DNA from: Alphaproteobacteria bacterium
Lineage (GTDB): Bacteria > Pseudomonadota > Alphaproteobacteria > UBA828
Length of the DNA stretch: 64,000 nucleotides
Direction: 5' to 3'
Assembly: GCA_963667785.2 (NCBI GenBank)
Contig: CAXXMU010000006.1
Location: forward strand, 1,024,001 to 1,088,000
The notes under the pieces are model-generated. The model did not search any database, was not told the DNA's origin, and saw only the letters and a list, made by a program, of their open reading frames with translations. Of this stretch, positions 17,005 through 64,000 are shown piece by piece. The translations under genes and the position numbers were made by a program. Every line of letters starts with the position of its first letter. Position 1 is the stretch's first letter.

Positions 17005-17007
17005 GCC

Positions 17008-18893: not shown

Positions 18894-18903
18894 GGGAACG
18901 ACC

Positions 18904-22706: not shown

Positions 22707-22736
22707 GACGCCGTCTCCCCGGCCCCGCCGGCCTGC

Positions 22737-44080: not shown

Positions 44081-44100
44081 CCGCCGCTCCCCGGTCCTGC

Positions 44101-45279
44101 TCAGTTCCGCAGGATCACGGAATCGCCCCAGACGGTCGCCCACTGCAGGGCTCGGGCGCCTGCGATCTGGCGCGGCCCGGCCTCGCCGCGCAACTGGCGC
44201 ACCATCTCGCAGAGCGAGTTCCAGCCGGCGACGTGGGCCTCGGAGAGCAGGCCGCCGGAGCTGTTGACCGGCAGCGCGCCGCCGGGGCCGATGCGGCCCC
44301 CCTGCACGAAGGCCGCCGCCTCCCCCGGCGCGCAGAAGCCGAAGCGCTCCAGCACGAACAGGACGAGCGGCGAGAAGGCGTCGTAGGTGTAGAGGCCCTG
44401 GATCGTCTCGCGCGGGATGCCGGCCGAGCGGTAGACGGCGAGGTCGCGCTCGGCCGGCTGCTCCGGTCGCACGCCCGCCTGCTGGTTGATGCCGAGACCC
44501 GGCGGCGCGAAGATGAACTCGTCGCGGCCTGCGCGCATGCCCTGCATGCCGGCGACGAGGACGGGCCGCTGCCTCAGGTCTCGGGCGCGCTCGGCGGTCG
44601 TCACCAGCACCACGGCCGCCCCGTCGCTGACGATGCAGCAGTCGAAGAGCCGGAGCGGGTCCACCACCATGCGCGAGGCCTGATGGTCGGCGACGCTCAT
44701 GGGCTTTCGCATCACCGCGCCGGGGCTCAGCCGCGCATGCGCCCGGAGCGCCACCGGCACTGCGGCAAGCTCCGCGCTGGTCGCACCGTAAAGCGCCATG
44801 TAGCACTGCATGGCAAGCGCGGCGCCGCCGGCGGGCGCGGTCAGCCCGTAGTGCGGGGTCTCCGCATGGGTGCCGCCGGTCTCGCGATAGCCCTCGAAGT
44901 CGTGCGGGCCGCCGAGGATGTCGCGCTCGCGGGTGAAGCTCAGCACGTTCACGCAGGCGACGACCGTGGCCATGCCGCAGGCCACCGCCATCGCCGCCGT
45001 CTGCAGGCTGCCGGTGACGAAACGGCCGTGGGTCCAGGCCTGGTTGACGAAGCCGATCTCGAGGCCGAAGGCCTGGGCGACCTGGTCGTAGTCGACGCCG
45101 AGGGGCCAGCCGATGTGGATGGAGAGCCCGTCGACGTCGCCCCGCTCGAGCCCTGCGTCGGCGAGCGCCGCCTTGAAGGCGGCGGCCGCGAGCGCGAGCT
45201 GGCTCTCGGGCAGGTGGCGGCCAAAGCGGCTGGTGCCGATGCCGACGATCGCCGCCCTGTCGCGCAGCGCCTCCGTCAT
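44101..45279 (-). CDS. SCP2-type thiolase-superfamily protein (Ltp2-like, no N-terminal nucleophile Cys)
   Basis: AIVGIG, LFDCCIVSDGAA, YDAFSP, NSSGGLLSEAH. Confidence 0.85.
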   Translation of the reverse strand: MTEALRDRAAIVGIGTSRFGRHLPESQLALAAAAFKAALADAGLERGDVDGLSIHIGWPLGVDYDQVAQAFGLEIGFVNQAWTHGRFVTGSLQTAAMAVACGMATVVACVNVLSFTRERDILGGPHDFEGYRETGGTHAETPHYGLTAPAGGAALAMQCYMALYGATSAELAAVPVALRAHARLSPGAVMRKPMSVADHQASRMVVDPLRLFDCCIVSDGAAVVLVTTAERARDLRQRPVLVAGMQGMRAGRDEFIFAPPGLGINQQAGVRPEQPAERDLAVYRSAGIPRETIQGLYTYDAFSPLVLFVLERFGFCAPGEAAAFVQGGRIGPGGALPVNSSGGLLSEAHVAGWNSLCEMVRQLRGEAGPRQIAGARALQWATVWGDSVILRN

Positions 45280-46868: not shown

Positions 46869-47101
46869 GGCGCGGGTCTCTCCGCGTGTTGGATCGGCAC
46901 GGGCTTCCCGGACCATAGACCGGGGGCCGGGGCGGGTGAACCTGCCGCGCATCCTGCCGCACGCGCGCCCTAGGTCTCGGATCGCATACGACATAAGCTA
47001 TGCGGCCGAACGATCCCGCGCGGGCATCCCGCGAGCGGGGTGGGGATGCTTGCGCGGTGGATTGGCGGCGCGACGACACAGGAAGTGGAGGACCGGTGAC
47101 G

Positions 47102-49156: not shown

Positions 49157-49178
49157 CGCAGAGAGCGAGGAAGAAGAG

Positions 49179-51194
49179 ATGAGCAAGAACGGTGAAGGCT
49201 ACACGCTCGACCCCGTGACCTTCGAGGTGCTCAAGAACGCCTACGTCAACATCGTCGACCAGATGGCCGAGCAGATCTTCCGCACCTGCTACTCCTTCGT
49301 CATCTGGTCGCGGGATTTCTCGTCCGCCATCTGCGACACCGAGGGCAACACGATCATGCAGGGCTCGGGCGACATCGCCGCCCACGTGGGCACGCTGCAC
49401 TACACGGCCCAGGCCGTCATCAACAAGTTCGGCGACGACATCCACCCCGGCGATACCTTCGTCGTCAACGACGTCTACCAGGGCGGCACCCACTTCAACG
49501 ACACGCGCATCGTCCGCCCCATCTTCTACAAGGGCATTCATCTGGGCTTCTCGCAGGCCAACGGCCACTGGGCCGATGTGGGCGGCGCGGTGCCGGGCTC
49601 GTTCAATGTCAGCGCGCTCGACCACATGGCCGAGGGGCTGCGCATCACGCCGGTCCGCGTCTACAGCAAGGGCGAATACCTCTCCGACGTGGCCGAGCTG
49701 ATCGCCAACAACACCCGCGCGCCGGCCGACATCATCGGCGACCTGCAGGCCCAGGCCGAGGCCTGCAACGTGGCCGAGCGGGAGATCGGCCGGCTCTGCG
49801 ACAAGTACGGCGTCGACGTGATCCAGACCTCCTTCGCCGAGGTACAGGACTATGTGGAGACGCTCACCCGTCAGCGCATCGCCAGGCTGCCTGACGGCGT
49901 CTGGGAGACGGAGGACTATATCGACGTGGACCCGGTCGCCGGCGAGGGGCTGATCCCGATCCGCATCAAGATGACCATCGACGGCGACGGCGTGCACTAC
50001 GACCTCTCCGGCTCGCACCCGAAGACGATCTCGACCTTCCTCAACTGCTGCTACGGCGGCGCGTTCGCGGCGATCGTCGCCGGCACCAAGATGCAGTCGC
50101 CCGACATCCCGCTGAACTCCGGCTTCTACCGCGTCGTCACCGTCGATCTCGGGCCGAAGGGGACCGTGGTCAACGCCGACTGGCCGACGCCTGTCGCGGG
50201 CTTCTGCTCGGGCCCGTTCGAGAAGATCATGAACTCGGTATTCGAACTCTGGGCCGAGATCCTGCCCGAGCGCGCCATGGCGTGCACCTTCAACCTCGAA
50301 TACCTGCTGATCGGCGGCCGCGACGGCCGCAAGGAGGATCGCCCCTACTTCATGTGGTACGACTGGATGGTCGGCGGCTGGGGCGCCCGCAACGGCCGCG
50401 ACGGCTGGGGCGCGACGGGGCCGGTCTTCGGCGTCCAGCTCGGCACCCAGCCCTTCGAGGGGCAGGAGCGGCTGGCCCCGGTGCTGACCACGGGCCACGA
50501 GCTCATCGTCGATTCCGGCGGTCCCGGCAACTCGCGGGGCGGCCTCGGCGTCGAGAAGGGCGCGATCCTGACCAAGGCGGAACGCTCCGTGGTCTCCTAC
50601 TGCTGCGACCGCGAGCGTTCGGTGACCTGGGGGCTGTGGGGCGGCCTGCCCTCGATCCCGCACGGGGTCTGGGTCAATCCGGGCACCCAGGGCGAGCGCT
50701 ATCTGGGCTCGATCTTCTCGGGCGTGCCGGTGGAGGCGGGCGACACCGTGACGCGGCCGTCCGCCGGCGGCGGCGGTCTCGGCGACCCGCTCACCCGCGA
50801 GCCTGCGACGGTGTGCGAGGACGTGGCGGACGGCTACGTCTCCATCGAGCGGGCGCGGAAGGACTACGGCGTCGTGGTCCGCGAGATCGACGCCGACCTC
50901 GCCGAATACGAGGTCGACGAGGCGGCGACCGAGGCCGAGCGCGAGCGCATCCGCACCCAGCGCCACGCCTGGCTCGACGTGGACGCCGAGGACATTGCGG
51001 CCAAGTACCGCAGCAAGGAGCTGGACGCGCTCGACCTGATCCGGCAGTACGGCGTGATCGTCGACTGGGGCACTGGCGAGCTCCTGCCCACCACCACCCG
51101 GCAGTTCCGCGACATGCTGCGCCGCCGCACCGCGGCCCACTGGGAGGTGCCGGGCCAGGCCCGCAACGAGCAGCCGACGCTCCGCGTCGCCTGA
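49179..51194 (+). CDS. Hydantoinase B/oxoprolinase family subunit
   Basis: RDFSSAI, NDVYQGGTHFND, HWADVGG, DSGGPG, GGGGLGDP. Confidence 0.93.
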   Translation: MSKNGEGYTLDPVTFEVLKNAYVNIVDQMAEQIFRTCYSFVIWSRDFSSAICDTEGNTIMQGSGDIAAHVGTLHYTAQAVINKFGDDIHPGDTFVVNDVYQGGTHFNDTRIVRPIFYKGIHLGFSQANGHWADVGGAVPGSFNVSALDHMAEGLRITPVRVYSKGEYLSDVAELIANNTRAPADIIGDLQAQAEACNVAEREIGRLCDKYGVDVIQTSFAEVQDYVETLTRQRIARLPDGVWETEDYIDVDPVAGEGLIPIRIKMTIDGDGVHYDLSGSHPKTISTFLNCCYGGAFAAIVAGTKMQSPDIPLNSGFYRVVTVDLGPKGTVVNADWPTPVAGFCSGPFEKIMNSVFELWAEILPERAMACTFNLEYLLIGGRDGRKEDRPYFMWYDWMVGGWGARNGRDGWGATGPVFGVQLGTQPFEGQERLAPVLTTGHELIVDSGGPGNSRGGLGVEKGAILTKAERSVVSYCCDRERSVTWGLWGGLPSIPHGVWVNPGTQGERYLGSIFSGVPVEAGDTVTRPSAGGGGLGDPLTREPATVCEDVADGYVSIERARKDYGVVVREIDADLAEYEVDEAATEAERERIRTQRHAWLDVDAEDIAAKYRSKELDALDLIRQYGVIVDWGTGELLPTTTRQFRDMLRRRTAAHWEVPGQARNEQPTLRVA

Positions 51195-51211
51195 GTGCCT
51201 CGACTGGGCCC

Positions 51212-51904
51212 GTGCGCACCGTCCTGGTCACGGGTGCCGACCGCGGCATCGGCCACGCGCTCTGCCGCGCCTGTCACGCGCGCGGCGATACGGTCGTCGC
51301 GGCCTGCCTGGATGATTCGGAGGAACTAAGGGCGCTCGACATCCGGGTCGAGCCCGGCATCGACGTGACCTCCGACGACGCGGTGCGGAGCTTGGCCGAG
51401 AGCCTCACGCGCACCGGCACGACGCTCGACGTTCTCATCAACAATGCCGGGATCGCCGGCCCCGACCATGTATTGGGCGCGCTCGACTACGACGACATCC
51501 GCCGGCAGATCGAGGTGAACGCGCTCGGGCCCCTTCGCGTGACCGAGGCCTTGCTGGAGCGGCTCAAGCCGGGATCGACGGTCGCCTTCATCACCAGCCG
51601 CATCGGCTCGCTCGGCGACAACCACTCGGGCGGGCTCTACGGCTACCGCATCTCCAAGTGCGCCGCCAACATGGTCGCGGTCAACCTCGCCCACGATCTG
51701 GCGACGCGCGGCATCGGCGCGGTAGTGCTGCACCCCGGCATGGTGGCGACCGCCATGACCTTCGACGACGAGCGCGCAGAGGCGCGGCCGCCGGAGGAAG
51801 CCGCCGCCGCGCTGATCGAGCGGATCGAGCGGGCCGGCCAGGCGGAGCCGGGCGCGCCGCCCGCCTTCTGGCACGCGCCCGAGCGCACGATCATCCCGTG
51901 GTGA
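51212..51904 (+). CDS. SDR, CsgA/C-factor-like
   Basis: TGADRGIG, INNAG, YRISK, LHPGMVAT. Confidence 0.88.
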   Translation: MRTVLVTGADRGIGHALCRACHARGDTVVAACLDDSEELRALDIRVEPGIDVTSDDAVRSLAESLTRTGTTLDVLINNAGIAGPDHVLGALDYDDIRRQIEVNALGPLRVTEALLERLKPGSTVAFITSRIGSLGDNHSGGLYGYRISKCAANMVAVNLAHDLATRGIGAVVLHPGMVATAMTFDDERAEARPPEEAAAALIERIERAGQAEPGAPPAFWHAPERTIIPW

Positions 51905-51944
51905 CGACCTTGCGCTAAGCGCGCACCGCGATTTCGGAGACGAA

Positions 51945-52052
51945 CCCCCACTTCACCCCGCCCCTCTCCGCCCCCAGGGGCAGAGAGGGAGAGCACGCTG
52001 TTGCAATCGCGTTCCCCCTCCGCCTTCGGGGGAGGGGGACAGGGGGAGGTGG
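51945..52052. repeat. Double-hairpin palindromic intergenic element (REP/RPE-like)
   Basis: CCCTCTCCGCCCCC/GGGGCAGAGAGGG and TCCCCCTCC/GGAGGGGGA hairpins, enclosed by CCACTTC...GGAGGTGG. Confidence 0.7.
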
Positions 52053-52091
52053 AGTGTGTCGTATGTGCGCGACGCTGGATGCGCACGCTAC

Positions 52092-53081
52092 CTAGGCGTC
52101 CAGGCCGAGGCTCCGGTGGAAGGCCTCGACCGCGCCGATGGCGGCATCCGCCGCGTCGTCCTGCTCCGGCAGGGCATCGCAGTAGGTGGCGACCGCTTGC
52201 TGCGCGAGCGGCATCCACTTCCCGATCCAGCCCCGGATCACGTCGGCATTGCCCTCCTGCTCCAGTGAGAACGCGACGAGGGCGGCGCTCCAGCGGCGCG
52301 AGCGCTCGCTGTCCCGCATCTGGTTGTCGGCGAGCAGGCCGAGGAGCCCGTCGTCGGAGCGACGCGCGACACGGCCGAGCTGCCGGTGCGCCTCGTCGGC
52401 GGCCGGCTTCGCCACCAGATTGAGCGCGACGAAGTGCTCGCCCCAGTCGTAGGTGGCGAGCGTCTTCTCCAGGAGCTCGCGGAAGCCCTGCCAGGCGGGC
52501 GCCGATTCCCAGGTCTGCCGCTCCGTCTCCCCGAACCCGCGCGCAGGGTGCGCGCGCTGGAGCTCGCGCGCCCGATAGGCGCAGCGGGAGAGCCAGCGGA
52601 ACTCGTCGCCGTCCTGGAAGCCGGCGCAGGCCGTCACCGTGCTGGCCGGCGCGATCTGCACCAGGTAGGCCGCGCCCATCTGCAGCGCCATCTGCAGGAA
52701 GCGCCGGGGCGTGTAGAGCCGCTCCAGCACGTCGAGCCAGGCGGCAGACAGCGTCCCGTCGTGGCCGATCTCGTCGTGCTCGTCGAGCAGGCCGTCGACG
52801 TACTGCTCCTGCTGATCCTGGATCCGCGTGTAGACGCGGTAGATCATCTCGTCCGGGTCGCGAAAGCCCTCCCAGTCCGGGTGCTGCAGCGGGCTTTCCG
52901 AGACGTGACGCTTGTAGAACTCGTTCATGCCCAAGAGCGGCGCGGGCGAGAGCTCGTAGGCCTGGTCGGGATGGCGCGTGCGGGTCTGCAGGTTGGTGGT
53001 GACGACCTCGTACTCGCTCGGCCGCCGCCGCTTCCTGGCGAGGCCGCTCCACGTCTTCATGCCTTTGACTTCGACCGTCAC
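52092..53081 (-). CDS. Soluble di-iron monooxygenase hydroxylase beta subunit (TmoE/IsoE-like)
   Basis: KTWSGL...RPSEYEVV, FRDPDEMIYRVY, WQGFRELLEK, DWGE. Confidence 0.92.
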   Translation of the reverse strand: MTVEVKGMKTWSGLARKRRRPSEYEVVTTNLQTRTRHPDQAYELSPAPLLGMNEFYKRHVSESPLQHPDWEGFRDPDEMIYRVYTRIQDQQEQYVDGLLDEHDEIGHDGTLSAAWLDVLERLYTPRRFLQMALQMGAAYLVQIAPASTVTACAGFQDGDEFRWLSRCAYRARELQRAHPARGFGETERQTWESAPAWQGFRELLEKTLATYDWGEHFVALNLVAKPAADEAHRQLGRVARRSDDGLLGLLADNQMRDSERSRRWSAALVAFSLEQEGNADVIRGWIGKWMPLAQQAVATYCDALPEQDDAADAAIGAVEAFHRSLGLDA

Positions 53082-53170
53082 GGTACTGCTCCCTAGTGTC
53101 CTGCTTTGAAGTTAATTCCCACTCAGTCGGGCTCGTGAGCGATCCCTCCAACTGCGGTTTTCTTACACAT

Positions 53171-53260
53171 CGTCATGCCCGGACTCGTTCCGGGCATCCA
53201 CGTTCTTTGCCCCCGCTGCACGAAAACTCGTGGATGGCCGGGACAAGCCCGGCCATGACG
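53171..53260. repeat. Palindromic intergenic element (alphaproteobacterial RIME/RPE-like)
   Basis: CGTCATGCCCGGACTCGTTCCGGGCATCCACG...CGTGGATGGCCGGGACAAGCCCGGCCATGACG. Confidence 0.8.
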
Positions 53261-53304
53261 AGTTGGGGGCGGCGCACAAGGATGGAGACTTCCGGAACGG
53301 GTCA

Positions 53305-53598
53305 CTAGCGCGCGACGAACCGGATGCCGTCCGGCTCGGTGCGGATGAACCCTGCGAAGCTCGGCATGTTCGCCTCGATGTCGCCGCGGGTGACGGTGCG
53401 GCCCAGCACGTCGCCCACCGTCTCGAAGCGCACGAAGCACTCGTCCGCGACCTTGATGCGGACATAGGACGCGTGCGCCTCGGTGATGACCTCGCGCCCC
53501 TCGCTCTCCTCCTGGATCGCCTCGAGCACCGCGTCCGCGATCTCGCCCGCGCGCATCACGGGGCCCACGAGGTTGCCGGCGTCGTCTGCCGTCGTCAT
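53305..53598 (-). CDS. Monooxygenase effector/coupling protein (TmoD/MmoB/DmpM family)
   Basis: VGPVMRAG, SYVRI, MPSFAGFI; GGAGGAG RBS. Confidence 0.92.
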   Translation of the reverse strand: MTTADDAGNLVGPVMRAGEIADAVLEAIQEESEGREVITEAHASYVRIKVADECFVRFETVGDVLGRTVTRGDIEANMPSFAGFIRTEPDGIRFVAR

Positions 53599-53629
53599 GC
53601 TCGTCTCCTCCTCCCCGGCCGAGGCCCGC

Positions 53630-53890
53630 TCAGCCGGCGCGGTAGATTTCGACGGACTCCATCTCGACGAAGCCCGCATCCGCGATGGTGAGCCCATCCG
53701 GCAGTGCCTCGTCGCTGCCCTGGAGACGCACCTTGAGGATCGCGTCGGACGGGAAGGGCGCCACCAGGACGCCCGCGACCTGGTCCGCCACCTTCCCCGC
53801 CAGCTCCGCCATGGTGTCGCCGGTATCGAAGACCTGCACCTTGTAGCCGTAGTCGCCCTCGAGCAGGACGGCGAGCGGAATGTCGGCCAT
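53630..53890 (-). CDS. Monooxygenase hydroxylase gamma subunit (TmoB-like)
   Basis: IPL...EGD, DTMAELA, TIADAG; 86 aa, directly after the alpha subunit. Confidence 0.88.
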   Translation of the reverse strand: MADIPLAVLLEGDYGYKVQVFDTGDTMAELAGKVADQVAGVLVAPFPSDAILKVRLQGSDEALPDGLTIADAGFVEMESVEIYRAG

Positions 53891-53905
53891 CGCAACTGCC
53901 CCCGT

Positions 53906-55426
53906 CTACTCGGCGGCCGCCGCGCGCGGCGCGTCGTAGCCGTCGATCCACTGATAGTCGTAGCCGCAGACGCCGCGCTCCTCGAAGCTCTGGCCCATGT
54001 ACTCGTAGAAGCCGTCGGGGCCCGGCGGCACGGTGCCGTCCAGCACCCGGTCGATGATGCTGCGATGCCCCTGGTAGCGGGCGGGCTCCAGCTCGAAGAC
54101 CCACTTGCAGGGCTCGGAGCAGAAGTGATAGCGCCGGCCCCCGTGGTCGAGGTGGAAGTCGGTGGCGTTCCAGCGCCGGCCGTTCACCTGCCGGCCCACG
54201 CCCGCGATCCCGGTCACCTCCAGCCCGCACATGTTGCAGATGAGCGGCGGAACCTCCGGCACCGTCTTCTCGAAGCGGCCCTGGCGGATATTGTCGATCA
54301 CCACGTCCCAGCACTTGCCGTAGGTGTCGTTCCAGCCCGGATACTTCTCCTCCAGCCAGTCGCGCTCGGCGGGCGAGACGCAGGCGATCGGCCGCCACCA
54401 CTCGGTCGCGCGGTAGACGTAGACGCCGATCTGCTGCGAGTGGTGGAAGGTCTCGATGTCGTGGAGGAAGTAATCCCAGTACCACGGCAGATCGAGGCCC
54501 AAAGCCTTGATGTTGCGGGCGAACTGATCGACCACCCATTCGTGCATGAACTCCTTGAGCGAATGCTCGCGGAACTCCAGCGGCGTGTAGTAGTCCATGG
54601 AGATGCCGCTCAAGGCGGAGAACTGCTTCCAGATGCGCCAGAAGCCGATGTCGACGAGCTGCTGCGCCTCCGCCTTGCGCCCGTTCTCGATCATGATGCT
54701 GATGAGCGGCGTGCCGATCTGCGCGTGCCGGGCCTCGTCGGTCTGGATGCTCTGCAGCATGGTGGCGAAGGTGTGGTCGCCCGCCTTCGCCGCGTCCGCC
54801 GAGAGGCCGATGAACTGCAGGTTGGTAAAGCCCTGCTCGAAGGCGAAGTTGGTCATGATCGCGGCGCTGATCGCATCGCGCGTGTGCTCGATGTCGTCGA
54901 GCGCATGGCGCAGGCTGATGATGATCCAGTTCTCGGTCTTGGACGACTTGTGCGCCCAGTCGAAGACGCGGTCGTGCTTGATGAACTCGTAGGCGAAATA
55001 CATCTGGATCTGGCCGTGACGCATTTCGTCGAGGGTGCCGAAGGTCGCCATGTTGCGCATGCCCGGCGCACGGCTGAAGCGGGTCATCCGGGCGAAGGCG
55101 GATGCCGAGTGGAACTCGGCGAAGCCGATGGGGCTGAAATGCAGCGCGAGCAGCGCCTTCCAGTGCGGCGAGGCGTTCTTGAAGAAGTCCGCCCGCGCGA
55201 GCGCGGACTTCACCGAATAGGCGCCGATGTCCTTGTCGCGCTGGGTCTCGACATAGTCCCGGTAGCAGACCTTGTAGGGCTCGTCGAAGGTCTCCCACTG
55301 CTCGACCGAAATCCCGAAGGGATCGCTGAACTCGGGCGGGAAGAGCTCTTCCTCGGCGACGTAGGCGGGAGTCCAGTTGGTATCCCGCGTGAGGTCGTAC
55401 CATTCGTGCATATCGAGCAGCGCCAT
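53906..55426 (-). CDS. Soluble di-iron monooxygenase hydroxylase alpha subunit (TmoA/IsoA group)
   Basis: WYDLTRDTNW; di-iron ligands E104, E134-x-x-H137, E197, E231-x-x-H234; T201-N202; WLEEKYPGW; C-terminal YHS-like domain. Confidence 0.95.
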   Translation of the reverse strand: MALLDMHEWYDLTRDTNWTPAYVAEEELFPPEFSDPFGISVEQWETFDEPYKVCYRDYVETQRDKDIGAYSVKSALARADFFKNASPHWKALLALHFSPIGFAEFHSASAFARMTRFSRAPGMRNMATFGTLDEMRHGQIQMYFAYEFIKHDRVFDWAHKSSKTENWIIISLRHALDDIEHTRDAISAAIMTNFAFEQGFTNLQFIGLSADAAKAGDHTFATMLQSIQTDEARHAQIGTPLISIMIENGRKAEAQQLVDIGFWRIWKQFSALSGISMDYYTPLEFREHSLKEFMHEWVVDQFARNIKALGLDLPWYWDYFLHDIETFHHSQQIGVYVYRATEWWRPIACVSPAERDWLEEKYPGWNDTYGKCWDVVIDNIRQGRFEKTVPEVPPLICNMCGLEVTGIAGVGRQVNGRRWNATDFHLDHGGRRYHFCSEPCKWVFELEPARYQGHRSIIDRVLDGTVPPGPDGFYEYMGQSFEERGVCGYDYQWIDGYDAPRAAAAE

Positions 55427-55496
55427 TCCATCGTCTCCCTGGTCGGTGCCGGGACGATGCGGGCGGCGCGCCTGTGGCGCCGCCCGCACCCCGAGC

Positions 55497-56543
55497 TTAC
55501 CCGCCGAGCGCGTCCTTGAAGATCGAGCAGTCGATCCCCACTGCGGGATCGACCGTCTCGGTCATCAGGCCGAAGGTCAACCACCACTTGTTGGTGAGCT
55601 CCCAGTGGTCGGTGAGCTGGCCGTTGCGCTGGCCGAAGGGCGGCTCGCCCTCGGCAACGCCGCAGAACTGCGCCGATTCCTCCAGACTATACATGTAGAG
55701 AGTGCCGTCGTCGGGGTTGTTGAGGCCGCCGAGGATCGGCTCCACGTCCGCCACGCCCCACTGTAGCACCTCGGCGATCATCGCGTTGCCCTCCGTCGGG
55801 TTCGCGCGCCACCACTCGACCGCCGCGTAGCGGGCCTTCGTGAGCGCCACCAGCAGGTCGCGGTGCTCCGCGACGAAGGCGTCGGAGACGAAGATGGCGT
55901 CCGCGATCAGGCCCTCCTTGAGCCAGTACTCCTCGCCCGAATGGCTCATCTCGCGCGAGCCGGGGAGCTCTTCCAGCACCTGCGGGCCGTAGGGGTCCCA
56001 GAGCTCGGCGGCCGAGAGCTGGCCCGCGATCATCGCTGCGGCGGCGGCATCCGGGAAGAGGTTCACCATCTCCACCTCGTCCCACTTGATGCCCTGCTGC
56101 TCGAGCCAGATCGCCATGTAGATCTGCGACAGCCCGCCCTCGATGACGCCGACCTGCTTGCCCTTGAGGTCCTCGGGAGAGGCGATGTCGGGGCCCACGA
56201 TGATGCGGTCCGATCCGTTGCCGAGATTGGTGAGGCCGAGCAGCTTCACCGGCATGTCCTCGGCGAGCGCGATGGGGCCGAACTCGATGGTGCTGGTCAC
56301 GATGTCGAGCTGGCCGCTCGCGAGCAGGCCCATGCTCTGCACCGGGTCCTCGATGATCGAGATCTCGAGGTCGACGTTCTCCGGCAGCATCCCTTTCGCC
56401 TTGGCGATGTGGAGGAAGCCGTAGCCCGGCCAGCTGAAGTGCGCGACCCTGACGGTCTCCTTGGCGCTGGCCGCGCCGGCGATGCCGAGCGCGAGCGCGC
56501 AGGCAGCCAGTGTCATGATGGATGTTCGCCACAGCATGGTCAT
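55497..56543 (-). CDS. NitT/TauT-family ABC substrate-binding protein
   Basis: Signal peptide; WPGY, EDLKGKQVG, WDPY. Confidence 0.88.
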   Translation of the reverse strand: MTMLWRTSIMTLAACALALGIAGAASAKETVRVAHFSWPGYGFLHIAKAKGMLPENVDLEISIIEDPVQSMGLLASGQLDIVTSTIEFGPIALAEDMPVKLLGLTNLGNGSDRIIVGPDIASPEDLKGKQVGVIEGGLSQIYMAIWLEQQGIKWDEVEMVNLFPDAAAAAMIAGQLSAAELWDPYGPQVLEELPGSREMSHSGEEYWLKEGLIADAIFVSDAFVAEHRDLLVALTKARYAAVEWWRANPTEGNAMIAEVLQWGVADVEPILGGLNNPDDGTLYMYSLEESAQFCGVAEGEPPFGQRNGQLTDHWELTNKWWLTFGLMTETVDPAVGIDCSIFKDALGG

Positions 56544-56580
56544 ATCTCCCTTTCCCTTAGGTTGTCCGTGCGGGCAGGCC

Positions 56581-57429
56581 CTAGCTGACCCGCCCCCTGA
56601 TCTCCTCGCGCATCATCGCGTAGAGCCGCCGCTCCATGTCCACGTAACCCGGATGCACGAGCATCTCCTCCTTCTTCTGGAAGCGGCGGCCTTCCTTGAA
56701 CGCCATGGGGAGGTCGGCTTTGATTCGCCCCGGCTGGCGGGTGTAGAAGATGATCCGGTCGGCGAGGTAGATCGCCTCCTGGATGTCGTGGGTGACCACC
56801 ACCACCGTCTTGTTCTCGCGCTCGATGATCTCGATTATCATCTCCTCCATCTCCCAGGTGACCTGGGCGTCGAGCGCGCCGAAGGGCTCGTCCAGCAGCA
56901 GCAGCGCCGGATTCTGCGCCAGCGTGCGCGCGATGGAGACGCGCTGCTTCATGCCGCCGGAAAGCTCGGCCGGATAGGCGTTGGCGAACCCCTCCAGATG
57001 AACGAGCTCGAGGAAGTGCTCGGCGCGCGCGCGCCGCTCGGCCTTCGCGAGCCCCTGGAGCTTCAGACCGTATTCGATGTTGGCCCGCGTCGTGAGCCAG
57101 GGGAAGGAGGTATAGGCCTGGAACACCATGCCGCGCTCGGGTCCCGGCCCCGGGATCGGCCGGCCGAACATGGTCACGTCGCCCAGCGAGGGGTATTCGA
57201 GCCCCGCCATCAGCCTGAGCATCGTCGTCTTGCCGCAGCCGGACGGGCCGATCATCGCCGTCACCTGATTGGCATGGACGTCGAAGGAGACATCGTCGAG
57301 GGCGATCACGCTGCCGTTCAGGTAGCTCTTGGTGACCCGGTTGGCGCGGAGCGGCGGCGTCCCCGGCAGAGGGGCGTCGACACCCGTCTGCGCCTGCGTC
57401 GCCTTTCGCCCGAGACCCAGGATCGCCAT
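56581..57429 (-). CDS. NitT/TauT-family ABC ATP-binding protein
   Basis: GPSGCGKT, VFQAYTSFPW, LSGGMKQR, DEPFGALD, VTHD. Confidence 0.93.
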   Translation of the reverse strand: MAILGLGRKATQAQTGVDAPLPGTPPLRANRVTKSYLNGSVIALDDVSFDVHANQVTAMIGPSGCGKTTMLRLMAGLEYPSLGDVTMFGRPIPGPGPERGMVFQAYTSFPWLTTRANIEYGLKLQGLAKAERRARAEHFLELVHLEGFANAYPAELSGGMKQRVSIARTLAQNPALLLLDEPFGALDAQVTWEMEEMIIEIIERENKTVVVVTHDIQEAIYLADRIIFYTRQPGRIKADLPMAFKEGRRFQKKEEMLVHPGYVDMERRLYAMMREEIRGRVS

Positions 57430-57440
57430 CCCGCCCCCTC

Positions 57441-58322
57441 CTAGCGCCTGACCCGCAGGTAGGGGAAGAGGATGCGGCTGGCGACGCGGAACGAGATGTC
57501 GGTCAGCACGCCGAGCACACCGATGGTAAGGATGCCGCCCATCATGATGTCGACGTGGAGGAAGCGGGCAGCCCGCATCATCACCGCGCCGATGCCGTCG
57601 GTCGCCACGATGATCTCGGCGATCACCAGGTAGGTCCAGGCGACGGCGATCATGTTGCGCATGGAATCGAGGATGGCGGGCGCCGCGGCGCGGAAGGTGA
57701 TGCCCACCACCTGCCGCCGCTTGGCCCCCATGGTGAGACCGGACTCGACCAGCTCGCGCTGGACCGCGAGCGTGTTGTCGAGGATCAGCGCGACGAGAAA
57801 GAAGAAGCAGCCGAGGAAGAGCAGCGCCATCTTGGCGAAGTCGGTCGGCCCGAACCACACCAGCAGCAGCGGCGCGAAGGAGGCCGCCGGCAGATAGCGC
57901 CAGCCCCCTGTGGTCGGGCTGATGAGCGCGCGCGCCTTGACGAAGCAGCCCATGAAGACGCCGAGCGGCACGGCGATCAGGCTGGCGACGAAGAAGCTCG
58001 CATAGATGCGGTAGAGGCTGGTGCCGACATCGGCGATGAAGTTCTTCTCGGCGAAGAGATAGGCGATCTCGGCCACCACCTGCTCGACGGCAGGCAGAAA
58101 GCGTTGCTTCTCCGCCGGCGTCGCGTAGTGGGCGACCTCCCAGACGGCGAAGAAGATGATGACGCCGAGCACTCCCAGCACCACGGTGCGCCGCTGGGTG
58201 AGGGAGCCCAGCACCTCCAGGAAGGGCTGACGCGGCGGCTTGAAGACGGGCGCGAGGGCGGCCTCGCCCGGTTGCGAATTCGCATCGGACGGCGGCGTGC
58301 CCCCGGCGTGCCCCTGCGCCAT
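57441..58322 (-). CDS. NitT/TauT-family ABC permease
   Basis: RYLPAASFAPLL, AWTYLVIAE, DGIG. Confidence 0.9.
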   Translation of the reverse strand: MAQGHAGGTPPSDANSQPGEAALAPVFKPPRQPFLEVLGSLTQRRTVVLGVLGVIIFFAVWEVAHYATPAEKQRFLPAVEQVVAEIAYLFAEKNFIADVGTSLYRIYASFFVASLIAVPLGVFMGCFVKARALISPTTGGWRYLPAASFAPLLLVWFGPTDFAKMALLFLGCFFFLVALILDNTLAVQRELVESGLTMGAKRRQVVGITFRAAAPAILDSMRNMIAVAWTYLVIAEIIVATDGIGAVMMRAARFLHVDIMMGGILTIGVLGVLTDISFRVASRILFPYLRVRR

Positions 58323-58371
58323 TCATGTCACCCCGGCGGCCGGCGGTCGTTCCCGGAGCGCGTTCGCCACG

Positions 58372-59607
<1,236 letters not shown>

Positions 59608-59630
59608 GGCGGGTCGTCTCCCCTTGCCCG

Positions 59631-60305
59631 TTACGCGCCCGGCGCCGGCCGCCGGCGGCCGCCGCGCCCGGCCGCCTTTCCGCGGCCGTTTCCTGCGCCC
59701 AGCGGCTTGTCCCACTTGAAGAGGCTCTTGTAGAGGCCGAGCCCCATCATCGGCTCGACCTGGGCGATGTCGTCCGAGCCGTAGCAGTGGGAATCGAGAA
59801 AGTCGCGCAGCTCGTCGGGCGAGCCGCACACCACCTCGGCCAGCAGGTCGAAGCGCGCGGCGACGCGCATGACGTAGACGACCTCGGGCCGGTCGCGGAA
59901 GTGGGACGCCACCTCATGGGCGCTCGCGCCGCGGGCGACCTTGATGCCGAGCATCGACCAGGCCGTGTAGCCCAGCGCCAGCGGGTTCACCACGGTGATG
60001 AAGTGAATCAGGTTGGCCCGGTGCATCTGGCCCACGCGGGAGCGCACGGTCCCTTCCGAGACGCCGAGCGTCCGCGCGATGGTGGAGAACGGCATGCGGC
60101 CGTCCTCCTGCAAGAGCGCCACGATCTCCCGGTTCAGCCCCTCGATGGGAGGAGCCGAGGTATACGCGACCGCGTCGTCCTGCAGGTCGGCCATGCCTAT
60201 CTGGCGCAGGCCCATGATCGGCGCGGGCTCCGCGTCGGCCGGCGCTCGCCGCCCTGCCCCTTCGCCGTTCCCCCCGGTCTTCGAGGATGCCTTCGAGGGG
60301 CTCAT
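59631..60305 (-). CDS. Lrp/AsnC-family transcriptional regulator
   Basis: LQEDGRMPFSTIARTLGVSEGTVRSRV HTH, RFDLLAEV; GGAGG RBS. Confidence 0.9.
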   Translation of the reverse strand: MSPSKASSKTGGNGEGAGRRAPADAEPAPIMGLRQIGMADLQDDAVAYTSAPPIEGLNREIVALLQEDGRMPFSTIARTLGVSEGTVRSRVGQMHRANLIHFITVVNPLALGYTAWSMLGIKVARGASAHEVASHFRDRPEVVYVMRVAARFDLLAEVVCGSPDELRDFLDSHCYGSDDIAQVEPMMGLGLYKSLFKWDKPLGAGNGRGKAAGRGGRRRPAPGA

Positions 60306-60325
60306 GCCGCCTCCCCCTGCGATCG

Positions 60326-60430
60326 ACGGATTCCGGCGCCGACAAGGGCCAACTCCGACGAAATCCATGGCCAATCGTAGCGATTGTCGCGCAACCCGTC
60401 AACGAAACGCCGTGAACTCACGAATTTCGC
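60326..60430. promoter_or_regulatory. Four phased (31-32 bp) semi-palindromic sites, putative Lrp operators
   Basis: ACGGATTCCGG 60326, ACGAAATCCAT 60358, GCGCAACCCGT 60389, ACGAATTTCGC 60420. Confidence 0.5.
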
Positions 60431-60433
60431 ATG

Positions 60434-60462
60434 TTGGCTTCGATCCGGGCCGCGTGTAATGT
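60434..60462 (+). promoter_or_regulatory. Putative sigma70 promoter of the deacetylase gene
   Basis: TTGGCT-N17-TAATGT, about 30 bp before the start codon. Confidence 0.35.
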
Positions 60463-60492
60463 CGAGAGAGCCGCTGCCGCGAGGAGGGAGCG

Positions 60493-61422
60493 ATGACGCT
60501 CAAGCTGATCGACAACCCGGTGCCGTGGCCGGACGGAGCCCGCTGCGCCGTGGCCATCACCTTCGACATCGACACCGACAGCATCCTGCACCTCGATTTC
60601 CCCGACAAGGCGGAGAACATGCTCTCGGCCAACTCGTTCCTCAGGTACGACGAGGTGGCGATCCCGCGGATCCTGAAGGTCTACGCCCATTACGGCATCA
60701 AGCAGACCTTCTTCTATCCGGCCTGGTGCATGGAGCGGTACCCGCACCTCGTGGACGCGATCCTGGAGGGCGGGCACGAGATCGCAGCCCACGGCTACCT
60801 CCACGAGAACCCCAACGACGAATCGCGCGAGCGGCAGGAATACTGGCTGGACCGGCAGATCGAGGTGATCAAGCGCATGACCGGGCGGGCGCCGCGCGGC
60901 TGGCGCGCGCCGCTCTACAACGCGTCGAAGCACTCGCCGGCGCTGCTCGCCGAGCGCGGCATGCTCTACGACGCGAGCCTGATGGGCGACGACGTCCCCT
61001 GCGTGCTGCAGACGCCCGCCGGCGAGGTCATCTGCCTGCCCTCGCACTGGGGCATGGACGACTGGCCGCACTACATGCACAGCCTCGACTTCCACTACAC
61101 CATGACCATCAAGTCGCCGGACGAGGCCATGCGGGTCTTCGATTCCGAGTTCGAGGCTATGTACGAGAACGGCGGCATGCTCGTCACCGTCTGGCATCCC
61201 TTCGTCTCCGGCCGGCTCGCCCGGATGCGCCGCGTGGCGGCGTGGATCGAGGCGCTGCAGAAGCGGGGCGGCGTCTGGTTCGCGACGATGGAGGAGATCG
61301 CCGCCCACGTGCGCGCCTGCATCGACGACGGCTCCTGGACGCCGCGCACGGAGCGGATGCCCTACTACGACGGGCGGATTCCGGAGTGGGAGCCGCAGGA
61401 GACCGCCGCCGCCGCAGAGTAG
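60493..61422 (+). CDS. Polysaccharide deacetylase (NodB-like) small-molecule amidohydrolase
   Basis: WPDGARCAVAITFDID, HEIAAHGYLHE, GWRAP, DDWP, WHP. Confidence 0.88.
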   Translation: MTLKLIDNPVPWPDGARCAVAITFDIDTDSILHLDFPDKAENMLSANSFLRYDEVAIPRILKVYAHYGIKQTFFYPAWCMERYPHLVDAILEGGHEIAAHGYLHENPNDESRERQEYWLDRQIEVIKRMTGRAPRGWRAPLYNASKHSPALLAERGMLYDASLMGDDVPCVLQTPAGEVICLPSHWGMDDWPHYMHSLDFHYTMTIKSPDEAMRVFDSEFEAMYENGGMLVTVWHPFVSGRLARMRRVAAWIEALQKRGGVWFATMEEIAAHVRACIDDGSWTPRTERMPYYDGRIPEWEPQETAAAAE

Positions 61423-61471
61423 GCGCAGCGCGACCGGCGCTGGCCTGCGCCCGCGCCTGCGCCCGTGCGGA

Positions 61472-62461
61472 TCAGAGCGCGGGGATCAGGCGCTCCTTCG
61501 GGTACTCGGCACCGACCACGTGCTGGATCGTCACCGCGCGCACCATCTGGTAGGTGCGGATGCGGAAGGCCGGGTCGCACGACATGCGGATGTACATGTC
61601 CTTGCCGCTGATGCCGTAATCGTCCCGCAGCCACTGCATCATGTTGTCGCAGGCGTCGTAGACCGCGTGCTCCATGGGCAGGTTGATGCCGACGGCGACG
61701 AGGCTGTCGGGCTTCTCGATCCGCACGCAGGGCGCGTGCTTGTTCTTGATGACCGTCGCGCTCAGCTCGATCGTCGCCCGCGTCTCGTCGGCGATGCCGG
61801 TGAACTCGGTGTCCCCCTGGCCGCCGTGCATGTCGCCCACGTAGAGCAGGCCGCCGTCGTGATAGGCGTTGAGATAGATCGTGTGGCCGGCGCGCACGTC
61901 GCGGCAGTCGATGTTGCCGCCGAAGGGGCCCTGGCCCAGCAGCGAGGTGAAGACCTCGCGCTCCGGCGCGCACGCGAGCGTGCCGCAGAAGGGCATCAGG
62001 TCCCAGGTGAGCTTGTCCGAGTACTTGCCCGTGCCGTCCCGCGTGTGGCCGCTCGGGCCGGGGAAGTGCTCGATCACCTGCACATGCGCCTCGGAGCACT
62101 CCGCCCAGCGCTTCGAATCCCCTAGCGGCCCGATGCCCGGCAGGATGCCGGAGAAGCCGTAGCGCCAGGGATCGATCGAATCGATATGGACCGCGAGCGT
62201 GTCGCCGCGCGCGCAGCCCTCGACGTAGATCGGCCCCACCACTGGGTTGTACTTGGGCGGCCAGACGCTCTGCAGGGACACGACGTGCTCGCCGGTGAAA
62301 TCGTGCACCAGCGGGTCGTCGCTGTCGTCGGCGATCAGGCCCGAGAGCGCGTCGTCGGTCTCCAGCCGGAAGACTTCTCCCTGGGCCACGCGCAGGATCG
62401 GCTCGTCCTCCCAGTCGAAGGCGTACTTGCTGGGCACCTCGCCCCGCCTGATCGTCTGCAT
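61472..62461 (-). CDS. Acetamidase/formamidase family protein
   Basis: NPVVGPIYVEG, GGNIDC, GDMHGGQGDTE. Confidence 0.9.
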   Translation of the reverse strand: MQTIRRGEVPSKYAFDWEDEPILRVAQGEVFRLETDDALSGLIADDSDDPLVHDFTGEHVVSLQSVWPPKYNPVVGPIYVEGCARGDTLAVHIDSIDPWRYGFSGILPGIGPLGDSKRWAECSEAHVQVIEHFPGPSGHTRDGTGKYSDKLTWDLMPFCGTLACAPEREVFTSLLGQGPFGGNIDCRDVRAGHTIYLNAYHDGGLLYVGDMHGGQGDTEFTGIADETRATIELSATVIKNKHAPCVRIEKPDSLVAVGINLPMEHAVYDACDNMMQWLRDDYGISGKDMYIRMSCDPAFRIRTYQMVRAVTIQHVVGAEYPKERLIPAL

Positions 62462-62583
62462 CGCGGCCTCTCCCTTCGCCTGTCGTCATCGCCCGGCGCG
62501 GCCCCGGACGTGCCGGGGGCGCCGACCGGCCGCCACGATATCACGGACCGCCGCGCGGACCCGACGCTGCGGCCTTCAGACGA

Positions 62584-62598
62584 TTATGGGTCCCATAA
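62584..62598. promoter_or_regulatory. Perfect palindrome TTATGGG-T-CCCATAA (LysR-type T-N11-A operator candidate)
   Basis: Read directly, in an AT-rich divergent intergenic region. Confidence 0.5.
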
Positions 62599-62767
62599 CA
62601 ATTTGTTTTCTTGCGGCGTTTTCGGGCGATGACCACCTGAGAAATTACGCGACAGGCCGGGAACAATCGTTCCCCGTCATCGGCAAGTGGATAGAGGCGC
62701 TGGGCCGTTCGCAATCGTGACGAGAACGAACGCCCGCGACGCCTCGAACGGGAAGGAAGTACCGACC

Positions 62768-63301
62768 ATGAAATATCGTTTCGCAGCGGCGGCAGCGGCC
62801 CTGGCGCTCGGTGTGACCGCCGGCCTCGGTGCCGCATCCGCGCACCACACCTACGAGGTTACGGTGACGAACGAGATGGAGGACGAGCTGCTCGCGCCGA
62901 TCCTGGTGGCACCGGTGGCGGAAGACGGCAAGATCTTCGTCGGGCGCTACGTCTCGAACGAGGCGGAGCACCAGATCCTCACCGGAGAGCCGGAGATGCT
63001 GGCAGACGTCATCGGCGAGAGCGCCGCGATCGGCCACGGCAGCGACGGCCCCCCCGGCGTCCTCCTGGCGCCGGGCGAGTCGGTCACCTTCACGGTGCCG
63101 AACGGCGCCGCGCAGGTCCGCGTCCTCGCCATGGTGGCGCCCACCGTCTACCCGGACCACTACGTGACCGCGGTCGTTCCGCTGAACGGCGAGCCGGTCT
63201 CGGTGGGGCTCGATCGCTTCGATATCGGCTACGACGAAGGCCGCATGCAGATCGAGCCCGTGGCCGAGGCGGTCGCGACGGTGAGCGTGGGCGTCATGTG
63301 A
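62768..63301 (+). CDS. Secreted protein, spondin-N-like
   Basis: Signal peptide; YEVTVTN, PGESVTFTV, LAMVAPT, FDIGYDE. Confidence 0.6.
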   Translation: MKYRFAAAAAALALGVTAGLGAASAHHTYEVTVTNEMEDELLAPILVAPVAEDGKIFVGRYVSNEAEHQILTGEPEMLADVIGESAAIGHGSDGPPGVLLAPGESVTFTVPNGAAQVRVLAMVAPTVYPDHYVTAVVPLNGEPVSVGLDRFDIGYDEGRMQIEPVAEAVATVSVGVM

Positions 63302-64000
63302 CCGGCGTCTCCGCGAGCCGTCGCCTGCTGTCGGCGGCGCGGCCGGCCTCGATCAGCGAGAGAATCATCTCGGGCCTGAGCGGCAGCGTCGTGATCTCGA
63401 CGCCGAAGGGCGCGAGCGCGTCACAGATGGCGTTGGCGAGCGCGCCCGGCACGGGCCCCGGCCCGCCCTCACCCTCCGCGCGGACGCCGGGCGGGTGGTC
63501 CGGGCTCGGCGTGGGCGCGAAGGCGACGGTGACGTGCGGCACATCGGCTGCCGACGCGAGAGGATAGCGCCCGAAGTCCGCCGCCCTCTGCCGGCCATCC
63601 TCGCCGTAGACGATCTCCTCGAACATCGCGTTCGACATCCCCTGGACGACCGCGCCCTGTACCTCGCCTTCGACGACGATCGGATCGATCACGCTGCCCG
63701 CGTCCTCGCAGGTGACGTAGTCGAGGACGATGAAGCGGCCGGTCTCGATGTCGACCTCGACCGTCGCGGCATGCGCGGTGAAGCAGGGCGCCGGCTTCGG
63801 CGCCTCGACGCGGGCAGTATGCGCTAGGCCGGGGGGCTCGCCCGGCGGCGGGTCCGCCTGCTCCCCGCGCGGCGGGAGCATGTCCGACGGGATGGCGGAG
63901 AGCTCCGCGCCGCAGGCGAAGCCGATCCCCAGATAGTGCCCCTCGGCGCGCGCGTCCGCCTGCATCGCGCGAAAGCCCGCGAGGTCCACCCTCTCCAGGA
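63294..64000 (-). CDS. Xanthine/CO dehydrogenase-family molybdopterin large subunit, C-terminal part with internal deletion; start outside window
   Basis: YLGIGFA, HAATVEVDIETG, EDAG...P.VVEG, GEGG...ANAICDAL. Confidence 0.8.
   Translation of the reverse strand, partial: LERVDLAGFRAMQADARAEGHYLGIGFACGAELSAIPSDMLPPRGEQADPPPGEPPGLAHTARVEAPKPAPCFTAHAATVEVDIETGRFIVLDYVTCEDAGSVIDPIVVEGEVQGAVVQGMSNAMFEEIVYGEDGRQRAADFGRYPLASAADVPHVTVAFAPTPSPDHPPGVRAEGEGGPGPVPGALANAICDALAPFGVEITTLPLRPEMILSLIEAGRAADSRRRLAETPVT

Follow-up and report, generated by a model that had tools for sequence, protein, structure and literature searches.

A branch of toluene-type di-iron monooxygenases linked to a triple-Rid protein and a CE4 hydrolase, a probable catabolic unit for polar, nitrogen-rich ring compounds

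The DNA analysed here (the window, a stretch of 64,000 nt at contig C6:1024001-1088000) comes from a 4.09-Mb alphaproteobacterial assembly with 70% G+C, and contains in one run the hydroxylase genes of a soluble di-iron monooxygenase (SDIMO) of the toluene type together with those of a triple-Rid protein, an ATP-binding cassette (ABC) importer and an Lrp-type regulator. Genes were called from the open reading frame (ORF) listing and with our own script based on third-codon-position G+C (GC3), and identities were assigned through Pfam and NCBIfam. The run occupies the minus strand (52092-60305) and begins with the Lrp/AsnC-type regulator (59631-60305, with an uncertain start and an ORF open to 60374), followed by a triple-Rid fusion of 411 aa with three PF01042 stretches (58372-59607), the importer permease (57441-58322; BPD_transp_1, PF00528), its ATPase (56581-57429; ABC_tran, PF00005, 111 bits) and a periplasmic binding protein of the NMT1/NitT-TauT type with a signal-peptide-like N-terminus (55497-56543; NMT1 58 bits and NMT1_2 44.6 bits, PF09084/PF13379). 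The monooxygenase genes come next, and encode a hydroxylase alpha subunit with a di-iron site and a C-terminal YHS domain (53906-55426; PF02332 239 bits, YHS 38.5 bits), a gamma subunit of the TmoB type (53630-53890; PF06234, 59.9 bits), an effector (coupling) protein of the MmoB/DmpM type (53305-53598; PF02406, 68.5 bits) and a beta subunit (52092-53081; PF02332, 200 bits). The co-oriented run of the initial annotation was confirmed with its coordinates for all eleven genes by the ORF listing, the GC3 calls and Pfam, and so were the short gaps reported between them (23, 49, 11, 37, 70, 15, 31 and 223 nt, seven of the eight at most 70 nt). A divergent amidohydrolase had also been proposed; the divergent gene is present on the plus strand beside lrp (60493-61422, 309 aa), and its product has a CE4 fold (PF01522, 64.3 bits), not that of the amidohydrolase superfamily.

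The longest gap, between the effector and beta genes, is filled by a palindromic dispersed repeat without assigned strand (REP/MITE-like, 53082-53304), with a hairpin match on both strands at 53171-53260. This repeat has 39 further matches in the genome, and the palindromic intergenic repeat at 51905-52091 has 42, at roughly 70-92% identity. Contigs of close relatives join 53092 to 53305 without the repeat, which indicates that its insertion before the beta gene is recent.

Alpha, beta, gamma and effector genes encoded together (PF02332 twice, PF06234 and PF02406) make up the group-2 set of the SDIMOs, and toluene-type members of this group are textbook oxidisers of hydrocarbons. The window alpha subunit scores 630 bits against ToMO TouA (1t0q), 607 against T4MO TmoA, 129 against phenol hydroxylase and 69 against MmoX, and no NCBIfam family was found for it. 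A scan of one genome per species returned 80 related loci. In a maximum-likelihood tree of 86 alpha subunits, the window and 45 of these loci form one clade (SH-aLRT 99), whose sister is a group of four loci from alphaproteobacterial metagenome-assembled genomes (MAGs), and outside of which lie a canonical plasmid enzyme, the Xanthobacter alkene enzyme and an isoprene-type enzyme. The 46-locus clade spans Alpha-, Beta- and Gammaproteobacteria, and its branch occurs in some 45 genomes at the species level, of which many bear the label of sponge symbionts, as well as in many marine metagenome contigs. The initial annotation had left it to the alpha phylogeny to decide whether the enzyme nests within characterised hydrocarbon monooxygenases: the subunit does not fall outside group 2, since it sits in the toluene-type radiation bounded in the tree by L085, L088/L089 and L086/L087, yet it belongs to a branch of its own. 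Judged on its sequence, the window alpha is thus a distinct branch within the toluene-type (group 2) SDIMOs.

The catalytic residues of this branch are intact, and those around them have changed. The di-iron ligands E104, E134, H137, E197, E231 and H234 are kept in the window and in all 46 clade alphas, as are T201, N202 and Q228. Ser107, present in 46/46 clade alphas and in 0/36 of the others, stands where those have alanine (36/36); His181 replaces methionine and Phe111 replaces glutamate, again in 46/46. Position 175 is Ala, Thr or Cys instead of Phe or Tyr, position 176 is Leu in 34/46 against Phe in the others, and position 180 is Glu in 24 and Ala in 20 of the 46, where Met, Leu or Phe occur outside the clade; H106 and Q198 are found in 35 and 36 of the 46, respectively. 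At 10 of the 12 clade-signature positions that could be read off the ToMO alignment, TouA carries the residue of the outgroup. Positions 100, 107 and 111 are separated from the ligand E104 by one or two turns of the helix, and we take positions 100, 103, 107, 176, 180, 196 and 205 to line the pocket in ToMO and T4MO. If they do, the clade pocket would be more polar than the hydrophobic pocket of those two enzymes. The sister-group di-iron monooxygenases of L049, L050 and L053 have H181, F111 and E180 in common with the clade, and no Rid or CE4 genes; in L053, alpha and gamma are separated by an M24 creatinase-like gene, and a large amine-dehydrogenase-like flavoprotein is encoded nearby.

The neighbours of the clade alphas were counted with window and Sneathiella proteins as queries at a coverage of at least 50%; the figures depend on our own identity and coverage thresholds, and many of the loci are MAG contigs. 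Gamma (43/46), effector (42/46) and beta (42/46) genes accompany almost every alpha, and a Rieske ferredoxin (30/46) and a reductase (11/46) are less frequent. Triple-Rid and CE4 genes occur in 34 clade loci each and both in 32; in the 36 loci of at least 15 kb they are found in 32 and 33, respectively, most loci without them being short contigs, and neither gene was found in any of the 35 non-clade loci. Such recurrence within the clade and absence outside it shows that chance does not account for the arrangement. The genes usually run alpha-gamma-Rieske-effector-beta-(reductase)-Rid-CE4, an order from which the window lineage departs by having the Rid gene and the importer shifted upstream and the CE4 gene inverted. 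The linkage is therefore not a peculiarity of the window's genome, which would have spoken against the system as initially proposed had it been one, and defines instead the whole clade. The wiring to an ABC importer and an Lrp regulator, on the other hand, is also found across the clade and varies more than the Rid and CE4 genes do: of the 46 loci, 27 have the binding protein, 23 the ATPase, 23 the permease and 25 Lrp. The other recurrent neighbours are an ArgE/DapE-type deacylase (16/46), a PuuR-like regulator (10/46), a CobW-type GTPase with a small Cys-rich protein (9/46), a short-chain dehydrogenase (SDR; 8/46), HyuA/B (7/46) and an NCS1 permease (5/46). The absence of ring-cleavage and epoxide-processing genes, already noted for the window, extends to the clade loci inspected, none of which showed any; the outgroup locus L085 differs in this respect.

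Metagenomes, scanned with a triple-Rid alignment, yielded 80 loci, many of them on contigs whose names are of a marine or Tara type. The triple-Rid gene is immediately followed by the CE4 gene in 54 of the 56 loci with at least 1 kb of downstream sequence, and a di-iron monooxygenase gene lies at most 2.5 kb upstream in 41 of the 48 with at least 1.5 kb of upstream sequence. Five of the seven exceptions, together with four shorter contigs, have instead a 361-aa FAD_binding_3 monooxygenase gene directly before the Rid gene (e.g. L150:8787-9872). These nine loci are 77-100% alike, which points to a single lineage. The nearest families of the swapped-in flavoprotein are the urate hydroxylase HpxO (185 bits, cut-off 500) and 6-hydroxynicotinate 3-monooxygenase (NicC, 127 bits), and its further matches are other hydroxylases of hydroxylated aromatic and N-heteroaromatic rings. 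Group-A flavoprotein hydroxylases attack activated aromatic rings and not sp3 C-H bonds, so the swap favours an electron-rich (hetero)aromatic substrate. Given the Rid/CE4 linkage and the exchange of oxygenases, the conserved unit is an oxygenase of either kind, the triple-Rid protein and the CE4 hydrolase. In a further exception, L173, the Rid and CE4 genes are accompanied by those of a peptide-type ABC importer, an M24 protein and two Amidohydro_1 proteins. Upstream of the flavoprotein genes (L150 and eight contigs), two GMC oxidoreductases, a citryl-CoA-lyase-like gene and a family III CoA-transferase were observed.

The triple-Rid protein is a single three-domain chain and not a RidA-type homotrimer of ~130-aa subunits. 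Its AlphaFold model (pLDDT 90.2, pTM 0.92) is a compact pseudo-trimer formed by the one 411-aa chain, and the top seven Foldseek matches are all chorismatase chains (5a3k/4bps, 5ag3; E 7e-16 to 5e-14, TMq 0.51-0.56, ~370 columns), aligned with 15-17% identity; single chains of the RidA family each superpose on one of its domains (TMt 0.81-0.90). Neither Pfam nor NCBIfam returned a chorismatase family for it, only Rid models, and with that of RutC it scores 78 bits, against 123 for the Sneathiella protein (L032) and a cut-off of 169. The arginine that binds the substrate carboxylate in RidA, which we take to be Arg105 of the E. coli protein, falls in a P-A-R site in PH0854, in YabJ and in the genome's own best single-domain RidA-like protein (TIGR00004 95.7 bits, cut-off 106.25; used as an alignment reference only). 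The three domains of the window protein have T, G and A at this site, and those of Sneathiella A, L and L. The role of imine/enamine handler that had been assigned to it cannot be transferred without more, the arginine being replaced in all three domains, and on these residues the triple-Rid protein is not a canonical imine deaminase. A second triple-Rid gene (397 aa, C1:492386-493579), whose neighbours are a Rid gene with one domain, an ABC ATPase gene and a large hydrolase-like gene, indicates that such proteins occur in other contexts in the window's genome.

The CE4 protein is 45-95% identical across the clade, and its D25, D27 and D29, H100-x3-H104, R138-x-P-x-Y, D-D-W and W-H-P are invariant in 34 of 34 orthologues, motifs that presumably correspond to the Asp-His-His metal triad and the catalytic Asp and His of CE4 enzymes. 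It scores 198 bits against an uncharacterised CE4 structure (3rxz) and 70 bits against the PuuE allantoinase 3cl6, and does not reach the PuuE allantoinase equivalog (81.1 bits, cut-off 424.6). In a soil and freshwater branch of the clade, the CE4 gene is followed by those of the small Cys-rich protein and the CobW-type GTPase, which may act as a metal chaperone or metal-delivery module for a CE4-type hydrolase. The same trio is seen elsewhere in the window's genome (C1:1082049-1084414), with the small Cys-rich protein between a CE4-like gene, so named from reading the sequence, and a CobW-type GTPase, and a homologue of the small protein, which has no Pfam family, lies near another CE4 gene at 22359-24911 of the window.

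Importers and regulators across the clade are of the kinds associated with polar nitrogen compounds, as had been suggested from the window: NitT/TauT ABC importers or NCS1 permeases, and Lrp or PuuR-like regulators. The NitT/TauT gene set of the window is complete (one NMT1-type binding protein, one permease and one ATPase), and its binding protein reaches no substrate-specific equivalog (SsuA_fam 95.5 bits, cut-off 163.5; taurine model 45, cut-off 304), its best solved relative being TauA with only 43.8 bits. The regulator matches an HTH_AsnC-type domain with 48 bits, in a scan that cut its C-terminus, and the NCBIfam AsnC model with 59 bits (cut-off 227), in an alignment that covers 7-142 of the 153 model positions. 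NCS1 permease genes (PF02133) lie directly upstream of alpha in L035, L039, L042 and L043, and also in the soil metagenome loci L175, L177 and L178. The solutes of characterised NCS1 members are nucleobases, hydantoins and allantoin, and in one case metformin (PMC13390362).

Other partners are restricted to certain lineages. In a marine gammaproteobacterial branch, two arginase-family genes with the nickel chaperones HypA/HypB converge on the operon in 9 of the 46 genome loci, some labelled as sponge symbionts (L016, L019, L022, L023, L025, L030, L033, L038 and L047; e.g. L022:16930-19076), and among the 80 metagenome loci the beta-type ureohydrolase gene is found in 11, of which 8 also have the alpha-type. 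The pair scores 578 and 496 bits against subunits A and B of metformin hydrolase, whose natural forerunner hydrolyses dimethylguanidine, a compound of natural source stated to be unknown in PMC11399263. A three-residue stretch is reported there to read S-T-S in the dimethylguanidine enzyme and N-S-A in the metformin enzyme, and it reads G-T-T in the marine alpha-type subunit. The glycine cleavage genes gcvT, gcvH and gcvP adjoin the operon in L035, L042 and L043, followed in L042 by glyA and sdaA (from their N-termini), and in the sister group L049 and L050 stand behind a formate-tetrahydrofolate ligase gene, with N-methylglutamate-pathway-like genes upstream in L050 (again read from N-termini). 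In the window's lineage, HyuAB genes lie beside the operon, and a distant pair occurs in L018 and L020. Those of the window form a convergent hyuA-hyuB-SDR operon on the plus strand (47096-51904), which encodes an ATP-dependent lactamase/hydantoinase-family enzyme and an IsoH-like dehydrogenase (caprolactamase alpha 533 bits and beta 336 bits, both below their cut-offs; IsoH 256 bits, cut-off 350) and whose linkage is confined to the closest relatives of the window. A homologue (53%) of the clade ArgE/DapE deacylase was read elsewhere in the genome beside racemase-like, XDH-type and HyuAB genes (C2:925091-933613).

Several known systems resemble parts of this unit. ToMO and T4MO are its best solved relatives and are alike in subunit set, di-iron ligands, T201, N202, Q228 and gene order, but the clade forms a branch of its own in the tree, with S107, F111, H181, A/T/C175 and E/A180 in place of A, E, M, F/Y and M/L/F; triple-Rid and CE4 proteins take the place of ring cleavage, importers are present, and the window has neither TmoC nor TmoF. 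HpdABCDE, a 2-hydroxypyridine 5-monooxygenase, and PmlABCDEF are di-iron monooxygenases acting on N-heteroaromatics, encoded in clusters with a ring dioxygenase, a deformylase and an amidase. Their job would be of the kind proposed here, on a polar N-heterocycle, and what sets them apart is this cluster content, which is not known to include triple-Rid and CE4 genes. The urate branch (HpxO, 5-hydroxyisourate hydrolase with OHCU decarboxylase, and PuuE) follows the same logic of hydroxylating a ring, processing the unstable product and opening a cyclic amide, but the flavoprotein (185/500 bits) and the CE4 protein (81/424.6) of the unit score far below the cut-offs of its enzymes, the middle enzyme is a triple-Rid protein and the oxygenase is usually a di-iron one. 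The Rut pathway likewise combines a monooxygenase, an amide hydrolase and a Rid-family protein for an N-heterocycle, and differs in its flavin-dependent RutA, isochorismatase-fold RutB and single-domain RutC. Chorismatases (FkbO/Hyg5), which are genuine single-chain enzymes, share with the triple-Rid model the pseudo-trimer of Rid-like domains, and their genomic context differs. The DmgH/MefH enzymes with HypA/HypB (PMC11399263) are homologous to the ureohydrolase pair found in the loci of one marine lineage and not in the window's genome. The unit would work like the urate branch and the Rut pathway without being a member of either.

We consider it probable (about 0.6) that the locus represents a group-2 branch recruited as the first enzyme of a three-part catabolic unit, formed by monooxygenase, triple-Rid and CE4 hydrolase, for a polar, nitrogen-rich ring compound. 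Its substrate is probably a small nitrogen-rich ring compound and not a hydrocarbon; candidates would be N-heterocycles with oxo or amino substituents and cyclic guanidines or ureides that resemble creatinine, hydantoin, a pyrimidone or an oxidised purine. Such a polar, electron-rich compound would be taken up by the NitT/TauT-type ABC importer, or by an NCS1 permease of the nucleobase/hydantoin type in other members, and the Lrp regulator would respond to the solute or to a product. The ring would then be hydroxylated by the di-iron enzyme (alpha, beta and gamma with the effector), the triple-Rid pseudo-trimer would rearrange or cleave the unstable product, and the CE4 hydrolase would open an amide bond. 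The finishing steps would depend on the lineage, with the ArgE/DapE-type deacylase, the nickel-dependent dimethylguanidine-hydrolase-like pair or the ATP-dependent HyuAB as candidate enzymes. The partner genes (PuuE-related CE4, deacylase, ureohydrolase and gcvTHP) would fit the breakdown of a cyclic amide, guanidine or ureide. A monooxygenase for a polar nitrogen-containing substrate had been put forward in the initial annotation, and this part of it finds partial support, the exchange for a flavoprotein of the N-heteroaromatic hydroxylase type agreeing with its suggestion of an N-heterocycle or nucleobase-like compound, with the substrate class still a matter of inference.

A number of observations weigh against this interpretation. 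The substrate itself is deduced from context, and the tree is a quick one (LG+G4, with L077 dropped for an internal stop) built on a set of alphas that does not include TmoA, TouA and Hpd, and the choice of pocket positions comes from mutagenesis literature. The window alpha is 55.5% identical to the plasmid-borne toluene-type enzyme of Paraburkholderia aromaticivorans, which adjoins meta-cleavage genes, and toluene-type enzymes are promiscuous, so an aromatic substrate could still be accepted. Without the RidA arginine, a role in imine or enamine chemistry cannot simply be carried over to the triple-Rid protein, and the triple-Rid of the window lineage, with ~31% identity to the others and domains that match in the order B, A, A/B and not A, B, C, is a less sure orthologue. 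The ureohydrolase pair, the flavoprotein swap, the NCS1 permeases and the gcv genes are each found in one or a few lineages and thus stand for few independent events. A search for the dimethylguanidine-hydrolase-like pair gave no more than 26-27% identity in the window's genome and, with the same query, did not find it in five other clade genomes (G001-G005), and seven clade loci (143 kb, at the gathering threshold) contained no riboswitch that would name a ligand; an E-value scan of RNA families over 44000-64000 of the window gave only chance-level matches of miRNA and CRISPR models on hairpins. To these must be added the repeat between the effector and beta genes and the absence from the window operon of genes for a Rieske ferredoxin (TmoC) and a reductase (TmoF).

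With no ferredoxin or reductase in the operon, electrons would have to come in trans. The window's genome harbours a second di-iron monooxygenase, with alpha, gamma, Rieske and effector genes at C8:9510-12093 and a lone beta gene at C2:32575-33573, a cluster that is contiguous as alpha-gamma-Rieske-effector-beta in the relatives G008 and G010. Its TmoC-like ferredoxin gene (C8:11414-11749) would most likely supply the electrons, and a TmoC orthologue (73-91% identity) is present elsewhere in the genome in 5 of 5 complete relatives that also lack the operon ferredoxin. As for the reductase, the best genome match to that of the clade has 31.5% identity and lies ~230 kb away. The second monooxygenase is a long-branched toluene-type enzyme (cf. 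L100-L102) located beside ribosomal protein genes, with no reductase seen next to it, and in the relative G006 a third, divergent alpha-gamma-beta set adjoins the second cluster. Two sponge metatranscriptome runs from two studies contain contigs 90-97% like parts of the alpha, gamma, effector, binding protein, ATPase, permease, Rid and CE4 genes, such as one of 1481 nt over 53775-55252; these contigs mark the presence of relatives in RNA libraries, not transcription of the window operon; their depth cannot rank the genes, and stretches that they leave uncovered carry no meaning.

The main rival to the ring-opening unit is an oxidative N-dealkylase for methylated guanidines or amines, a scheme of hydroxylase and hemiaminal lyase in which an N-methyl or N-alkyl carbon would be hydroxylated, the triple-Rid protein would speed the breakdown of the stable hemiaminal and the nitrogen moiety would pass to the ureohydrolases. 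A precedent exists in methylguanidine, for which a hydroxylase and a dedicated hemiaminal lyase have been shown (PMC12508155). The dimethylguanidine-hydrolase-like pair adjoining the operon in marine lineages also fits this scheme, as do the formate-tetrahydrofolate ligase in front of the sister-group loci L049 and L050 and the N-methylglutamate-pathway-like genes of L050. We still regard it as unlikely, because a group-A flavoprotein, with no sp3 C-H chemistry, can stand in for the di-iron enzyme, because the CE4 hydrolase, the most constant partner, is left without a role, and because the ureohydrolase pair is limited to one lineage. Somewhat more doubtful is a narrower form of the preferred reading, in which the unit would be a new enzymatic route that opens 2-amino/oxo N-heterocycles of the creatinine or methylated/oxidised guanine type and releases free guanidines; a guanidinohydantoin route to guanidine has already been proposed (PMC12623156).

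A third explanation, less likely again, is that of an ordinary monooxygenase of aromatics or alkenes (toluene, benzene, phenol or similar), with the Rid, CE4, ABC and Lrp genes as unrelated neighbours. The 630 and 607 bits to the ToMO and T4MO alphas, the complete set of catalytic residues and the order alpha-gamma-(Rieske)-effector-beta-(reductase), as in canonical operons, are all in line with it. But such an enzyme leaves unexplained the Rid and CE4 genes that accompany the hydroxylase in 32 and 33, respectively, of the 36 long loci and in none of the 35 outgroup loci, the pocket residues altered in 46/46, the importers of polar solutes and the flavoprotein that replaces the di-iron enzyme before the same Rid-CE4 pair, and the clade loci, in contrast to L085, showed neither catechol nor epoxide genes. 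Least likely of all would be a decaying or silent remnant, an explanation confined to the operon of the window lineage, in which ferredoxin and reductase have been lost and a repeat has been inserted. None of the ten loci of the lineage (WIN, the window itself, L005-L011, L015 and L037) has a Rieske or reductase gene, 223 nt of repeat separate effector and beta in the window, and the CE4 gene (PDA) is missing in L037. Nevertheless, all four hydroxylase genes are open and the ligands are preserved, the identity of alpha amounts to 92-97% in seven relatives and to 80% in L015, the 5/5 complete relatives keep a TmoC orthologue elsewhere, related contigs appear in two RNA libraries, and the repeat is recent, as relatives lack it.

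Other genes of the window appear to have no part in the unit. A formamidase-like gene (61472-62461), a gene for a 204-aa secreted protein and XDH-type genes were considered as members and rejected, as they were found in 0/80 of the related loci, even at 95-97% alpha identity. At 15343-19212, 33 kb from the monooxygenase operon, a dihydroxy-acid-dehydratase-family gene, a membrane FA_desaturase-family (di-iron) gene and a Rieske ferredoxin gene (18904-19212) are followed by transporter-like genes and constitute another oxygenase system. A creatinase-like gene was read from the sequence at C6:1092674-1093885, ~5 kb past the end of the window.

Among the papers listed for toluene monooxygenases and sponge symbionts, none dealt with this operon, judging by title and abstract, and literature searches returned none joining an SDIMO with a polysaccharide deacetylase and none on an SDIMO gene cluster for N-heterocycles with an amidohydrolase; the papers retrieved for toluene monooxygenase and RidA were unrelated by title and abstract. 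If the proposed reading is true, the chemistry of a family of hydrocarbon oxidisers would extend to polar nitrogen compounds, and a three-enzyme catabolic unit would be defined. Cultured carriers exist in Sneathiella litorea, Zavarzinia aquatilis and Pusillimonas caeni, and the operons of S. litorea (L032) and P. caeni (L042) are complete, with all six components from alpha to the reductase. The link with dimethylguanidine-hydrolase-like genes makes the natural source of methylated guanidines a testable question. Should the doubtful guanidine-releasing version of the reading be true, the unit would be, in those marine lineages that have the dimethylguanidine-hydrolase-like nickel enzyme beside it, the missing natural source of dimethylguanidine or methylguanidine, a source called unknown in PMC11399263 and PMC12508155, and it would give an enzymatic form to the guanidinohydantoin route put forward in PMC12623156.

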